Under the pieces are notes generated by a model. It ran no database searches and had not been told where the DNA came from. It was given only the letters and a program-made list of their open reading frames with translations. Both the position numbers and the translations under genes were made by a program. From a phage, in the sequence record OZ346151.1: a DNA stretch of 64,000 nucleotides, one strand, 5' to 3'. Each line of letters begins with the position of its first letter. Position 1 is the stretch's first letter. Positions 1-8,725 of this stretch are shown one piece after another.

Positions 1-1397
1 TGAGTGCTTTAGAGTTCAAAGCCCCACCTAAGCGAGCATTTACCTCTACAGGAGATGTCAGTAAGATGGGGATAAAATGGTGTGAAGAGATGGGCTGCAA
101 AGACCACGATAAGATGGCTGATTTCTTGAGAGGTTATATTAAGGGCACCTCCACACCACAACCTTTACCTAAAGAGCTGATGGATCAGGCAATAAGCGAT
201 CTGCAACAGAAGCGAATGCCTGACTGCAAGATACCTATGAAAATCAGCAATCAGGACGACATTAAGCGATACCTGATCAGTGCTGGTTGGCTTCCGACAA
301 TGTGGAGAACTAAGGATGTAACTAAGGACAGCAAGAAGAAAGCTCTACCTGATGCAGATGTTGATGCACGAGTATATGCATACATGGACGAGCTTTTAGA
401 GTCAGAGTATTGTGACCTAATTATCAACTTCTGGAACAAAACTGATGCTAAGTTTCAGACAACAGTGCACAAGTTCCGAAGCTTTCCTAACTCCGAAAGG
501 ATTAAAAAGGAAGTGTTCGGGAAAATACGCAGAAAAGCCAGGGCACTTATTACTTCTCCGCAACTGAAAGATACGTTTGGACACCTATGTCCGAATCTTG
601 AAAAATTGAACGGAGAGATGGCTAAAGATATCGTCTTGTGGTTATCATTGCGAAACCGCAGATCGGTCCTTGATCCAATCAAGGAGGATAAGGTTGATAC
701 TGGTCTTCTTAATCACCCACGTTTGAAGATTGACCATAAGCTTCCTGCTAAAAGCTCTGGATTAACAAACACTTCCCGACAGAAACACAGTATTTGTGCA
801 AACATGCCTAAACCATCTCCTAAAGTGGTTATGGGTAAAGAGATGCGTAGCTTGTGGGGTGTTCCTCCTGGATACTTTGAGATCGGTATTGACGGGTCCA
901 ACTTAGAGCAGCTTATCGGGGCTTGGGGTGCCTTTGAGTTCGACAACGGCTTGTACTATGATGTTGTAAGTAACGGGGACGCACACCAAAACAATGCTGA
1001 GGCATATACAAAAGTAGCAGGCAGAGAGGTGTCTCGTAACGACGGTAAACCTATCACGTATGGGGTTATGTACGGGGCACAAAAAGATAAAGTTGCAGAT
1101 ATGCTGGATATCTCCCCAGAGTTGGGGCAAAGGGTGATCGATGCACTTTGGGATGCCAACCCAGGTCTTAAGGGGCGCAAAGAGGATCTGGAGAAATTCT
1201 GGGAAGCAACAGGTAAGAAGTTTATCTACTCTTTTGATGGTCATGCTATCTGGACCCGATCTAAACACTCTTTACTTAATGCATACCAACAAAATGGCGG
1301 CGCATCGTTGTGTGACTTAGTTGGGATACTCATGCACCATCAAATGGTGAAGCGTGGGTGGTACGATGAAGGTGTTCGTCGTATTATCTATTACCAT
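1..1397 (+). CDS. DNA polymerase, family A (Pol I/T7-like), exon 1; 5' end lies outside window
   Basis: Frame 3 is open from window start. Motif A-like GIDGSNLEQL and motif B KPITYGVMYGAQ present. ORF track 66..1403 ends ...IIYYHK-stop exactly where motif C HDE is expected. Confidence 0.85.
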
Positions 1398-2239
1398 AAA
1401 TAACATTGTGGCTTCGTGCAGTGATGCACGTCGAAAACCTCTTTAATTGACGGGAAGGCTAAGTTGACTTTTACACCTAAACATGGTAAAAGCTCAATAT
1501 GCTAATCCGCAGCGAAGACTAAAGGGGTGTAGTTAAAATGGCTAGATCAGTTGAGTATCACGGATATACCGTGTTTGATGATGGAACAATACCTTTATCG
1601 AAACGTGATCATACAACAATGTTTTGTTTTGATAATGGTCGAGGTTACCTTTGCGTAACCATGTTCATCGAGGGGAAGCAGTGCACAAAAGGTGTCCACC
1701 ACTTGGTTGCTGAATGCTTTGTATCAAACCCTGATCCTGAAAGGCTCACATGGGTGAACCATAAGGACGGAAACAAATACAACAATGCATACTGGAACCT
1801 TGAATGGACCACCCCTGGTGGAAATATCAAACACGCTTATGATAATGACCTCAGAGTAAGGCCAGTCGGTGAGTATAATGCCAACGCTGTACTGACCGAG
1901 GATGAGGTAACGGAGATTTGCGAACTGTTACAAAGTGGTTTACGACAATGCGAGATTAGGGATCTTGGGTATCCTTATGAGACGGTCAGAGCCATAAAGC
2001 AAAGAAGACAGTGGAAACATATCTCTAAAAACTACACCTGGTAGTAACGTTCAGAGACTATCGAAAGCATAGCGCCAACATAAATTGGTGCGAAGAAGCG
2101 AGTAGAGTAGACCAGCAAGTGCGGTCGAAATGGGAGGTGCCTTGGTAACAAGGTAGTGAGATAGTCCGATCCATACAGGAAACTGTATGGCTGTGCACGT
2201 AATGGTGCGGGGTAGCTTAACGACCTACCTGAACTATTG
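1398..2239 (+). mobile_element. Group I self-splicing intron inserted in DNA polymerase motif C
   Basis: Conserved core elements in canonical order: P AATTGACGGGAAGG (1445-1458), Q AATCCGCAGC (1504-1513), R GTTCAGAGACTA (2049-2060), S GAGATAGTCC (2158-2167). Exon 1 ends with U (1397), intron ends with G (2239). Joining 1397 to 2240 restores ...YYH-DEYQL... in frame. Confidence 0.8.
1538..2044 (+). CDS. HNH homing endonuclease (intron-encoded, between Q and R elements)
   Basis: 168 aa; HNH motifs VHHLVAECFV ... VNHKDGNKYNN ... NLEW; ATG at 1538 inside intron. Confidence 0.85.
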   Translation: MARSVEYHGYTVFDDGTIPLSKRDHTTMFCFDNGRGYLCVTMFIEGKQCTKGVHHLVAECFVSNPDPERLTWVNHKDGNKYNNAYWNLEWTTPGGNIKHAYDNDLRVRPVGEYNANAVLTEDEVTEICELLQSGLRQCEIRDLGYPYETVRAIKQRRQWKHISKNYTW

Positions 2240-2593
2240 GATGAGTACCAACTTCAAGTCCCTGACACACCGAAGTATAAGACTGTGTACACCTTCGACA
2301 CAATCGAAGAACTGGAAGCATTTAAGGCAGAGCAGGAGGCCAAACTTCATGTGTTCGACGGTCATAAGTACAAAAAGGCACGCAAGGATGAGGACGGAAA
2401 CGAAGTGGTTGACAGAGACGGAAACACGGTGTACGATCCTATCCTGAACGATGACGGAAAGCTTGAACTTATCTGGAGCCCTGTGGGTGAAATGGTGGTG
2501 CATTGCTTCTGGCAAGCTTCTAAAATGATGGGCGTCCCGTTCCAGATCACGGGTGAATACCTGTGTGGTCGTAATTGGGGTGATTGTCACTAA
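2240..2593 (+). CDS. DNA polymerase family A, exon 2 (C-terminal 117 aa)
   Basis: Begins GAT GAG (DE) completing motif C; ends ...GVPFQITGEYLCGRNWGDCH, resembling Pol I (VPLLVEVGSGENWDQAH) and T7 pol (GPNWAICH) C-termini. ORF-track 2237..2593 begins 3 nt upstream at a TTG. Confidence 0.8.
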   Translation, partial: DEYQLQVPDTPKYKTVYTFDTIEELEAFKAEQEAKLHVFDGHKYKKARKDEDGNEVVDRDGNTVYDPILNDDGKLELIWSPVGEMVVHCFWQASKMMGVPFQITGEYLCGRNWGDCH

Positions 2594-2642
2594 TGTAAAC
2601 TATCAACACATGGAAGTGTTGTTGAGCAAAGAGGAGACTTTT

Positions 2643-2927
2643 ATGGTAGTAGAACCAACAAAAACATTTACATCCATGACTATCCCTGTTATTATGCAGG
2701 TGGAGTGTGTTCAGGTATCTCAAGTGTGGCCTGGCACCAAAATCCCGACAGGGCCTGATTTCTTTCAGGTTGGCAAAGTGTACAATGTCTGGAAGGCACC
2801 AGATTGTTACCCTTTCATCAAAGATGACCGTGGGATGCTGTGGTATCTTGGAAATGATTTGACACTGCACCTTGGGAATGCTATTATTGCAGTATTCAGA
2901 CTTAACAAGAAGGAGACTGATCAATGA
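2643..2927 (+). CDS. hypothetical protein
   Basis: ORF track 2553..2927; start refined to ATG 2643 preceded by GAGGAG. Confidence 0.45.
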   Translation: MVVEPTKTFTSMTIPVIMQVECVQVSQVWPGTKIPTGPDFFQVGKVYNVWKAPDCYPFIKDDRGMLWYLGNDLTLHLGNAIIAVFRLNKKETDQ

Positions 2928-3151
2928 CGACTTTGGTTAAAGCTACCTTTGTAGAAGAAAAGATGACAGACCTGTCATTCTTTAAAGAAGGAAAGACCTA
3001 CGAGGTTTATTACGATAAAGCTCGTGCAAATAAAATGATTAAAGACGAGGAAGGGGTTGCCTGGTTTATCTCCCATCTGGCAAACGGTGAGTATCATATC
3101 TACGGAACCACCCTGCTTGCCAAGTTTGTAGCTGTTGAAGAGGACCTATGA
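2924..3151 (+). CDS. hypothetical protein
   Basis: 75 aa ORF, start overlaps upstream stop (ATGA). Confidence 0.45.
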   Translation: MTTLVKATFVEEKMTDLSFFKEGKTYEVYYDKARANKMIKDEEGVAWFISHLANGEYHIYGTTLLAKFVAVEEDL

Positions 3152-3342
3152 AAGTAAAGTATCTGGCTGAGGGTATGAGTAGGTATTTCACCCTTGGTGA
3201 AGAATATTGGCCATTTACAAGCAACGGCGATGTCTACGTGAAAGATAATTTCGGCACGCCATGGTTTTTGCACCCTAACGGGTTAGGGTATTCTATTTAT
3301 CGCAGTGCAATGAGCGACACAACCCTTGCAGAGTTTGTATAG
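3148..3342 (+). CDS. hypothetical protein
   Basis: 64 aa ORF, translationally coupled. Confidence 0.4.
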   Translation: MKVKYLAEGMSRYFTLGEEYWPFTSNGDVYVKDNFGTPWFLHPNGLGYSIYRSAMSDTTLAEFV

Positions 3343-5335: not shown

Positions 5336-5418
5336 CAAATACCTATTGTAATTTACAGAAGGGGATGCTAAAATAGTGTCTCCTTCTATGTTGTTCAAAT
5401 AAAATCGGAGATTCCATA

Positions 5419-5784
5419 ATGGAACAAATGAACGATCAAGCGTCGGTTGCGATGAACGAGCAAGAACAACCTCAAGAATTTTTCTTAGGGTTAAGTAAAG
5501 ATCAAGTGTCTCTTCTGCTAGTGCTTTCTTCTTTCATGGGAAGACTTCAGGAGCTCACACAACAGCCAGAGGCTGAACAATTATTCCAAGCTTTGCGTGA
5601 AGAAGAAAAATATCGTCGTTTGGACTATGCCTTAGGTTGGGTAGCTCAACAACGAGATATGCTGATGGCCCTCTCTGGGACCACAAGTTTTGCAATGGGG
5701 CTGTTGGCTCAAGTTCAGGACAAATTAATTCAAGCAGGGTTTGCACACACGGCAAACACTAACGAAGAACAAGGAGACAAATAA
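5419..5784 (+). CDS. hypothetical protein
   Basis: 121 aa, RBS GGAG upstream. Confidence 0.45.
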   Translation: MEQMNDQASVAMNEQEQPQEFFLGLSKDQVSLLLVLSSFMGRLQELTQQPEAEQLFQALREEEKYRRLDYALGWVAQQRDMLMALSGTTSFAMGLLAQVQDKLIQAGFAHTANTNEEQGDK

Positions 5785-7010
5785 TGAGCGTTATTCAACA
5801 ATTCGCTAACCCGATGAATCCGCGTGAAACTGTTTTACTGGCTCACGGCATGATTAAACGTGTCAGCATCAAGCCTATCAAAGGTGCTGATCCTACAACA
5901 GGTATTAAAACCACTGTGTGGCAAGGTAAGAAAATTGAATCCAGCCACACCATCTCTTTACTGATTTCTGAACTGGATTCCTCTGATAACCTGCTTCAAG
6001 GTGGTGAAGAAGTTTGGATCAGCATGGGTGATAAGCTGCTTAAACCTGGTCATCAAGACTCTGTCTCTGTTAAAATTGATGACAAGTGGGAAACCGTAAC
6101 GCCGGGATGGATCGTAAATATTCCTTTGAAGGCAAACGAGCATAACGGTAAGACCTATTACAAAGGCTCACTGGCTAAGATGGTCAAGCTGGGTGCAGGA
6201 GAGGCTCCAGCAGCGACTCAGCAGCAAAAACAGCAACAAGGTGCACAATCACAAGGCCAGAAGCAGAAACCTCAGCAGAATGCCAATCAGGACGTTTTAC
6301 GCATCTATGGTGATGTGACTCAGATTGTTGGCAACGTGGTTACTGTTAATGACCACAAGATTGGCGAAGGTGCTATGGTTGTAACTGATGAGCAGCTTAA
6401 AGACCTGGTGGTAGGTGGTCGTGTTGCAGCCATTGTTGACAAAGACACCGGAAACATTATCAGTGGTTTCAAGGCCTATCCTCCTAAGGCAGAGAACGGC
6501 ACTCAAGGCTCTGGTGGCAAGCGTAAATCCTCTTACGACCCTATCGGTGTGGAAACGGGGCATAGCATCAATGCGTTGCAGATCATCCTGGATCGCGGGT
6601 TTAAGGTAGACGACCCACTGGGCGTGGCTAAAACACTGCACGTAGTCACCATTGAGCTTAAGAAAGAGTATGCTCAAGCCACCAACCGAGCTGAAGATGA
6701 AGTAGGTGCCAGTGTCGGTAATGCGGTGTTGAACGCTTGTCGCCGTATTGACAAGAAAACGAAAGTTGATGATTTTGCAGTGGCAATTACTGCAGAAGCA
6801 AAAGATGTCTTGACTAATCTAGCTGAGCCGTTGTACGATTGGATCAAGAACGGTGCTGAGTCCACTGACCATCAAGAACCTCAGGCTGCCAAACAGGAAG
6901 CAGCTCCACAGCAAAACACTGTAGACGCTCCTCCTGTAAATGATGCGGAAGATGACCCAATGGATCAGAATCCAGCACAGTACGTCTTTGATGATGACAT
7001 CCCATTTTAA
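5784..7010 (+). CDS. SSB-like protein with conserved acidic C-terminal tail (DDDIPF)
   Basis: 408 aa; Q-rich linker; terminates ...YVFDDDIPF, matching the bacterial SSB C-terminal tip. Confidence 0.55.
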   Translation: MSVIQQFANPMNPRETVLLAHGMIKRVSIKPIKGADPTTGIKTTVWQGKKIESSHTISLLISELDSSDNLLQGGEEVWISMGDKLLKPGHQDSVSVKIDDKWETVTPGWIVNIPLKANEHNGKTYYKGSLAKMVKLGAGEAPAATQQQKQQQGAQSQGQKQKPQQNANQDVLRIYGDVTQIVGNVVTVNDHKIGEGAMVVTDEQLKDLVVGGRVAAIVDKDTGNIISGFKAYPPKAENGTQGSGGKRKSSYDPIGVETGHSINALQIILDRGFKVDDPLGVAKTLHVVTIELKKEYAQATNRAEDEVGASVGNAVLNACRRIDKKTKVDDFAVAITAEAKDVLTNLAEPLYDWIKNGAESTDHQEPQAAKQEAAPQQNTVDAPPVNDAEDDPMDQNPAQYVFDDDIPF

Positions 7011-7072
7011 CATTTAGTTAACATAGCCCTGCCAGAAAGGGTGGGGTATTTTTGTATAAGGAGATCTAAAAA

Positions 7073-7851: not shown

Positions 7852-8277
7852 ATGATCTATGAAATGCCAAAACTGATTCGTGACGATGCCCAAAACGCCC
7901 ACACCTTTATCATGGGCAAGCGCATGGATATTATTTGTCATAAAGATTTCTGGGAAGGTAGTTACTTCACAGAATATTTTGGTAAACTGGATAATGGTCT
8001 GCTGATCCAGTTCTACACCGATGCGGAAAACAATATCTGCTGGGAGTTCGAAACTGAAGATATCCATAAACTTTTCACCTTCCTAGGTATTAAGGTTGAG
8101 GCCAAGTTTGAAGAAGGCGAGTGCGACGATTGTGGATTCTACGAGGTAACAGATTTCTATCTCCCAAGTGGTGAGAACCTTTACTATGAAAGCCACTTCG
8201 GCAACTCAAATATGCCACAAGGTTGGGATGAGTTTTTTGAAATTGCGGAAGAGGAGCTGACATACCGTGATTATTGA
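7852..8277 (+). CDS. hypothetical protein
   Basis: 141 aa ORF. Confidence 0.45.
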   Translation: MIYEMPKLIRDDAQNAHTFIMGKRMDIICHKDFWEGSYFTEYFGKLDNGLLIQFYTDAENNICWEFETEDIHKLFTFLGIKVEAKFEEGECDDCGFYEVTDFYLPSGENLYYESHFGNSNMPQGWDEFFEIAEEELTYRDY

Positions 8278-8725
8278 TACTGTAGCGGGAGATTTAATCT
8301 CCCTTTTTAAGAGCGGTGCTGGTCACCTGATCCACGGTTGTAACTGCTTTCATACAATGGGTGCAGGCATAGCGAAAGATATTGCCCGTGAGTTCCCTCA
8401 AGCACTGGCAGCCGACAAAGAGACTGCCTATGGTAATCTGGACAAGCTGGGTATGTTTTCTTGTTGGGAGCATTTTGCCAAGAACAGGGTCGTATATGGA
8501 ATCAACCTGTATACCCAGTTCTACCCAGGGCCCAATGCTGAATACTTCTCAATAATGAAAGGTTTTGAGCGAGTCAACGAGGTATTCAAAGGTGTGTCAT
8601 TGCCGTTCTACATTCCTAAAATTGGATGCGGTATTGGCGGTCTAAAGTGGGAACATGTAGAAGATGTAATTAATCTTGCAACCACAGATATTGATGTGGT
8701 TGTAGTAGAGTACAAAAAGTGTTGA
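8267..8725 (+). CDS. Macrodomain protein (TARG1/DarG-like ADP-ribose hydrolase family)
   Basis: 152 aa; motif HLIHGCNCFHTMGAGIAKDIAREFP typical of TARG1-like macrodomains; GTG start with GAGGAG upstream. Confidence 0.55.
   Translation: MIIDTVAGDLISLFKSGAGHLIHGCNCFHTMGAGIAKDIAREFPQALAADKETAYGNLDKLGMFSCWEHFAKNRVVYGINLYTQFYPGPNAEYFSIMKGFERVNEVFKGVSLPFYIPKIGCGIGGLKWEHVEDVINLATTDIDVVVVEYKKC

Follow-up and report, generated by a model that had tools for sequence, protein, structure and literature searches.

A probable single-stranded DNA-binding protein with a host-type C-terminal tip encoded by Vequintavirus phages

Gene organization at the locus

We analysed a stretch of phage DNA of 64,000 nucleotides (sequence record OZ346151.1; hereafter, the window), in which a gene for a 408-aa SSB-like protein forms the second member of a two-gene unit that begins with a 121-aa ORF and lies between two terminator-like hairpins (Table 1). 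The two reading frames overlap at TAATG, where the TAA stop of the 121-aa ORF runs into the ATG of the SSB-like gene, an arrangement suggestive of translational coupling. The DNA over the 408-aa gene is 99.9% identical to Escherichia phage Murica and 90-99% identical to 116 Vequintavirus (rV5-like) records, and judged by its sequence the window is Vequintavirus DNA from an rV5-like phage of E. coli.

The 121-aa protein is predicted to be helical, and two roles were considered for it. One GenBank record names it 'putative SSB', but it gave no Pfam match. As a family-wide partner of the SSB-like protein it was rejected, three diverged family loci having shown no copy of it. A 152-aa ORF slightly downstream of the unit matches phrog_335; the Murica and JLBYU08 annotations call it a macro-domain protein, and it could be a candidate ADP-ribose-processing enzyme relevant to counter-defence.

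Table 1. Features of the two-gene unit and its surroundings, in window positions
Feature	Position	Strand	Remarks
Promoter-like match	5346-5374		Overlaps the 5357..5387 hairpin; consensus match only
Terminator-like hairpin upstream of the unit	5357..5387	+	14-bp stem; equivalent in Murica annotated as terminator
121-aa ORF, phrog_7310 (unknown function)	5419..5784	+	
Shine-Dalgarno sequence AAGGAG	5770..5775	+	8 nt before the ATG; RBS annotated at the Murica equivalent
CDS, 408-aa SSB-like protein, phrog_4477	5784..7010	+	Orthologue of Bas52_0087 / rV5 ORF214
N-terminal beta-barrel, predicted OB fold, residues 1-139	5784..6200	+	pLDDT 80-92; OB-fold structural matches
Disordered Gln-rich linker, residues 140-169	6201..6290	+	AlphaFold2 pLDDT <50
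Predicted five-stranded small beta-barrel, residues 170-235	6291..6488	+	OB-like topology; strands 3 and 4 separated by a short helix
Predicted four-helix bundle, residues ~250-356	6531..6851	+	Helices 253-270, 278-300, 304-321, 328-355
Disordered acidic tail, residues ~357-408	6852..7007	+	pLDDT <50 from residue 363; ends FDDDIPF
GC-rich hairpin followed by T run, closing the unit	7026..7057	+	Intrinsic-terminator-like
152-aa ORF, phrog_335 match	8267-8725	+	

The C-terminal tip of the SSB-like protein

Reading from its ATG, the 408-aa ORF ends in ...NPAQYVFDDDIPF with the TAA directly after the Phe codon, and the C-terminal peptide of the protein (PAQYVFDDDIPF) closes on FDDDIPF (nt 6987-7007), the same 7 residues with which E. 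coli SSB ends. An earlier note on this DNA had described a DDDIPF tip preceded by an acidic stretch, and this was borne out, with the last 52 residues carrying a net charge of -12. The motif DDDIPF occurs a single time in the six-frame translation of the window, where composition would lead one to expect ~5e-4 occurrences anywhere and ~2e-5 directly before a stop codon; we reject a chance origin of the tip. The note had also described a protein more than twice as long as E. coli SSB, in agreement with the lengths of 408 and 178 aa, and a Gln-rich linker between two folded regions. The Gln-rich stretch (QQQKQQQGAQSQGQKQKPQQ) occupies residues 146-165 (nt 6219-6278), and AlphaFold2 indeed places it within a disordered segment that separates two confident beta domains.

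Predicted domains and relation to known ssDNA-binding proteins

The AlphaFold2 model, built on 26 homologues, divides the protein into two beta-barrels joined by the linker, a four-helix bundle and a disordered tail (Table 1), all of these folds being predictions. Structure prediction for OB folds had been proposed in the earlier note as a check, and it yielded a predicted OB fold in the N-terminal domain. This first domain has a net charge of +3 (pI 9.1) and conserves H55, aromatic positions 78 and 102, G108, G122 and K123, and the charge layout of the whole, with a basic domain 1 and an acidic tail, is by its sequence SSB-like. The linker varies in length among close relatives, which occur as 395-, 404- and 408-aa forms. 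Modelled alone, the helical domain reached a pLDDT of 92 and a pTM of 0.84, and structure search returned no specific structural relative for the bundle.

Pfam hmmscan gave no match for the 408-aa protein at E<=1, including none to PF00436 or DUF2815, and returned nothing at E<=0.01 when run on 122 family members, while the sole strong PHROG match was to phrog_4477 (function unknown; E=1.7e-172, residues 1-408). Against PDB sequences, phmmer found no match in the folded part of the protein, and the family profile reached only the tail of E. coli SSB (E 0.19). When E. coli SSB was compared by tblastn with the window and with 72 kb from a close relative, a search of limited sensitivity, the tail of the 408-aa protein was the only hit, and the 110 kb of JLBYU08 examined carry no annotation of another SSB. 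With no other candidate in either the annotation or the tblastn results, the SSB-like gene is the only visible SSB candidate of the phage.

Compared with canonical SSBs (PF00436; E. coli SSB, phrog_44), the protein shares the predicted OB fold, a disordered low-complexity linker rich in Gln/Pro, an acidic tip with the last 7 residues identical, and a free C-terminus. It differs in that its folded part has no detectable sequence homology to them and does not match the PF00436 profile, and in that canonical SSBs (178 aa in E. coli) have neither the second beta-barrel nor the four-helix bundle; oligomerisation is a task of the OB domains in canonical SSBs, whereas here the helical bundle is the candidate. 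Proteins of the T7 gp2.5 type (DUF2815 / 'DNA helix destabilizing protein') offer a second comparison, being likewise OB-fold proteins with an acidic tail that ends in Phe and likewise encoded alongside a gp4-like primase-helicase and a family-A polymerase, and Foldseek against BFVD gave weak structural matches to gp2.5/DUF2815 (E ~6e-3 to 4e-2).

Multi-OB binders (Stn1/RPA32, Rim1, the two-OB SSB of Thermus/Deinococcus, and RecO) are 7-17% identical to the protein; their winged-helix or zinc domain is missing here, and the helical domain described here has no counterpart in them. The order of an OB fold followed by a helical domain does recall RecO, and the protein might on that basis be taken for a RecO-like recombination mediator or annealing protein that acts in recombination-dependent replication of the phage and not as a general SSB. 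We consider this very improbable, because RecO matches the OB part only, and the helical and zinc-binding domain that follows the OB fold in RecO-type proteins was not found in the 408-aa protein.

Breadth and conservation of the family

With a profile run against 1.84 billion representative proteins, we gathered a family of 241 clusters at 50% identity, most of them proteins of 260-300 aa that comprise domain 1, the helical bundle and the tail. Most members lack the second barrel, which together with the Gln-rich linker is an insertion typical of the rV5, PVP-SE1 and phiTE lineages. Within the family, conservation is highest in the helical bundle (GxETGHxxN, VGAxVGNAVLNA and an invariant G312), and D252, just ahead of its first helix in the model, is kept in 80% of the family.

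Conservation extends to the C-terminal end. Among the best 150 representatives (of clusters at <=50% identity), 109 end in [IVLA]PF, a further 17 have PF or PW within one residue of the end, 4 have IPF followed by an extension (15 aa), and 7 have another acidic-aromatic terminus; the remaining 13 end differently, most of these being short and apparently truncated. Many members end in PPMDFDDDIPF, which reproduces the final 11 residues of E. coli SSB.

Phage records place the family in the Vequintavirinae (rV5, PVP-SE1/Seunavirus, phiTE/CR8, Mydovirus), in phi92-like phages and in Phapecoctavirus. Annotation of the gene in Vequintavirus reads 'hypothetical protein' nearly always and 'putative SSB' occasionally. 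The family is also a mosaic at the level of domains, in that the members P0040-P0043 have a diverged domain 1 and a linker and second barrel near-identical to those of other groups, and variants of the helical domain are combined differently among members. This mosaicism, with the variation in linker length, suggests recombination between domains and slippage within the linker.

Replication-module context

Vequintavirus genomes carry the gene ~3 kb downstream of those for a primase-helicase and a family-A DNA polymerase, and they further encode a ligase, RNase H, exonucleases, a second helicase and Nrd enzymes. A comparable arrangement recurs in three metagenomic contigs whose members are 33-36% identical to the 408-aa protein, all three having the order primase-helicase (Toprim/DnaB_C), DNA polymerase, a few small genes and the SSB-like gene. 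The polymerase matched PF00476 in two of these contigs and was unclassified in the third. Shortly downstream of the SSB-like gene, two of the three encode homologous proteins of ~340 aa that have no Pfam match and are suspected to be T7 gp6-like exonucleases.

The primase-helicase of Vequintavirus (Murica 908-2986, just upstream of the window start) has an acidic tail of its own, ...GFEDDETPF (...SSDPVPGFEDDETPF), which resembles the SSB tip and recalls the T7 gp4 tail. Both gp4 and gp2.5 of T7 carry acidic, Phe-terminated tails that bind the polymerase.

This parallel raises the possibility that the tail of the SSB-like protein serves mainly the phage replisome, docking onto the family-A polymerase and/or the primase-helicase, and that its likeness to the host tip is convergent or incidental. 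Such a reading draws on a module that matches that of T7 in its gp4-like primase-helicase, its family-A polymerase and its OB-fold protein with an acidic, Phe-ended tail, and also on the helicase tails themselves, given that the Klebsiella phage KpS8 primase-helicase ends in ...GPDDDTPF plus a 15-aa extension like that described below for the SSB-like protein. The helicases in more distant family contexts, however, do not have acidic-PF tails, so that the idea of such tails as general to the family contexts was dropped, their occurrence being confined to Vequintavirinae; and the agreement of many members with the host tail over its last 11 residues exceeds what convergence on an acidic end with Phe would need. 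We regard a tail devoted chiefly to the replisome as somewhat unlikely, if a serious option, and as a refinement of the preferred reading, a phage-encoded SSB, more than an exclusive rival to it. A phage SSB tip that serves a phage partner has a precedent in the HK620 SSB and Sak4 (PMC5928155).

A cap and endonuclease cassette at the tip

In ~52 Vequintavirus records, including rV5, IPF is followed immediately by a 15-residue extension (...DDIPFAPVGLQYGKSRIHAL), hereafter the cap. The 15 extra codons of the rV5-type cassette encode APVGLQYGKSRIHAL, the consensus of the cap is APxGLQYxxxxIxAL, and tip plus extension were matched in 233 phage records. An ORF for an HNH/EndoVII-type endonuclease (phrog_1035) follows, with its ATG inside the cap codons. 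The cassette (stretch 2525-3167 of rV5, DQ832317) joins exactly after the Phe codon, and beyond it the intergenic sequence continues as in the window, where the empty site is found at 7008-7025; Murica and Bas52 have the empty site as well. From this layout, the cassette looks like a homing endonuclease that would target the DNA of the SSB tip. The endonuclease-bearing allele differs near the junction, where it reads DFCDDIPF and carries silent changes. In phage morffagbaw (stretch 2025-2484), a related endonuclease, phrog_2340, which shares the N-terminal Cys-rich domain, likewise follows a canonical ssb (phrog_44).

We had considered the cap a mere by-product of homing-endonuclease insertion, a view since withdrawn because three proteins carry it with no endonuclease gene downstream, namely the canonical SSB of mEp235 (stretch 1066-1572; APVTLPFPRHAIHAI), the canonical SSB of Vibrio phage V039C (stretch 577-1125; APVGLQYGRNLLHVI) and the KpS8 primase-helicase (stretch 1003-3066; …DDDTPFAPIGLQYAKHAIYVI). 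Its presence without the endonuclease suggests that the cap is a conserved peptide module, which would apparently cover the otherwise free SSB tip. Binding in canonical SSB-Ct pockets makes use of the unblocked carboxylate of the last Phe, and since phages with a capped tip are viable, an exposed tip would seem not to be essential for growth. The viability of the capped phages thus tempers any claim that recruitment of host partners is central.

The Bas52 orthologue and the DRT10 defence system

The protein encoded in the window is identical at 402 of 408 positions to Bas52_0087 (QXV84166.1) of Escherichia phage RudolfGeigy/Bas52 (MZ501102), with which it shares its length, its genomic position, FDDDIPF, D252 and Y351; none of the six substitutions falls at these two sites or in the last seven residues. 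Bas52_0087 was described in a preprint (bioRxiv 10.64898/2026.04.29.721553, 30 April 2026) that examined Bas52 mutants escaping the DRT10/UG17 reverse-transcriptase defence system, and both independent escapers carried one substitution each in Bas52_0087, D252V or Y351C. Supplied in trans, wild-type Bas52_0087 raised restriction and the mutants did so much less; its expression alone neither triggered DRT10 nor harmed cells, and overexpression of host SbcB (ExoI) lowered DRT10 restriction (bioRxiv 10.64898/2026.04.29.721553). From AlphaFold, the authors reported an 'SSB-like architecture' with two OB folds, the barrel at residues 170-235 being the second, and a disordered C-terminus with the FDDDIPF C-tip; they placed the escape sites at a 'putative oligomerization interface' and proposed competition with SbcB or its displacement (bioRxiv 10.64898/2026.04.29.721553).

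The genetic link to a role as DRT10 trigger was thus shown for an orthologue that is 99% identical, and since 402 of 408 residues agree and D252, Y351 and the tip are unchanged, the SSB-like finding and its interpretation are already published. Our analysis adds the family-wide conservation of the tip, a three-domain map, synteny, the acidic-PF tail of the Vequintavirus helicase and the cassette of cap plus endonuclease, which, with the main observation in print for so close an orthologue, amounts to context and not discovery. Our model differs from the description in the preprint in one respect, in that D252 (nt 6537-6539) and Y351 (nt 6834-6836), the latter near the end of helix 4, fall in what we predict to be a separate, highly conserved four-helix bundle that forms the core of the wider family.

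The protein might instead act chiefly through its tail, displaying many host-type tips that would sequester or redirect ExoI, RecQ, RecJ, PriA, UDG and other SSB-interacting host proteins and so protect phage DNA ends or ssDNA intermediates. An activity of this kind would fit a tip that agrees with E. coli SSB over the last 7 residues here and over the last 11 in relatives, the competition with or displacement of SbcB proposed by the DRT10 authors along with the response of restriction to SbcB dosage, and the phage's own RNase H, exonucleases and ligase, which may make recruitment of host enzymes matter less than blocking them. Several observations nevertheless make a pure decoy the less likely reading. 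That the gene keeps its place in the replication module, with no other SSB candidate visible, points to a core replication role; OB and helical domains conserved over 241 clusters would be needless in a scaffold for tail display; both escapers are missense mutants; and expression by itself is non-toxic. The capping of the tip by 15 residues in many natural variants also counts against it. We therefore hold decoy or hijacking activity as the main function to be unlikely, although it is compatible with a role as SSB. The earlier note had left the choice between a phage SSB and a protein with an SSB-tail mimic; that pair of readings is supported, and of the two we prefer a probable SSB over a pure decoy.

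A more elaborate version, which we likewise judge improbable, is that the tip is a regulated decoy with which the protein competes with host SSB for ExoI and other SSB-Ct clients and so protects phage ssDNA, exposure of the tip being switched in nature by the optional cap cassette. The cap could then be a C-terminal module not described before, one that covers SSB tails or directs them to other targets, with a possible bearing on sensitivity to SSB-sensing defences such as DRT10.

Interpretation and significance

We conclude that the 408-aa protein is probably the phage's own replicative SSB, belonging to a non-canonical family that combines a predicted OB fold, a four-helix bundle and a disordered acidic tail bearing a host-type tip. 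Starting from the observed sequence features, conservation and synteny of the gene, we infer ssDNA binding, oligomerisation and the identity of the tail partners as follows. The basic N-terminal OB domain, possibly with the second barrel, would bind ssDNA at phage replication forks, and the conserved helical bundle may mediate self-association or cooperative coating. The flexible acidic tail would meanwhile offer FDDDIPF to proteins with an SSB-Ct pocket, which may be host genome-maintenance proteins such as ExoI/SbcB. Host SSB-Ct clients are indicated as partners by how very closely the tip follows the host tail and by the SbcB genetics, and the phage family-A polymerase or primase-helicase might be further partners, as for the tail of T7 gp2.5. 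Coating of ssDNA together with competition for SSB partners could alter host ssDNA metabolism and in this way lead to the DRT10 response.

Phage SSBs are increasingly recognised as frequent triggers of bacterial immunity, and the proteins considered here would represent a large SSB-like family that lacks a Pfam model and whose members mostly bear the label 'hypothetical', in which a different folded core is joined to the partner-recruiting tail of the host. With correct annotation, the SSB so far missing from the replication modules of rV5-, PVP-SE1-, phiTE-, phi92- and Phapecoctavirus-like phages would be supplied, and the family may provide a clean system in which to ask whether the host SSB tip serves a phage for recruiting host enzymes or for competing for them.
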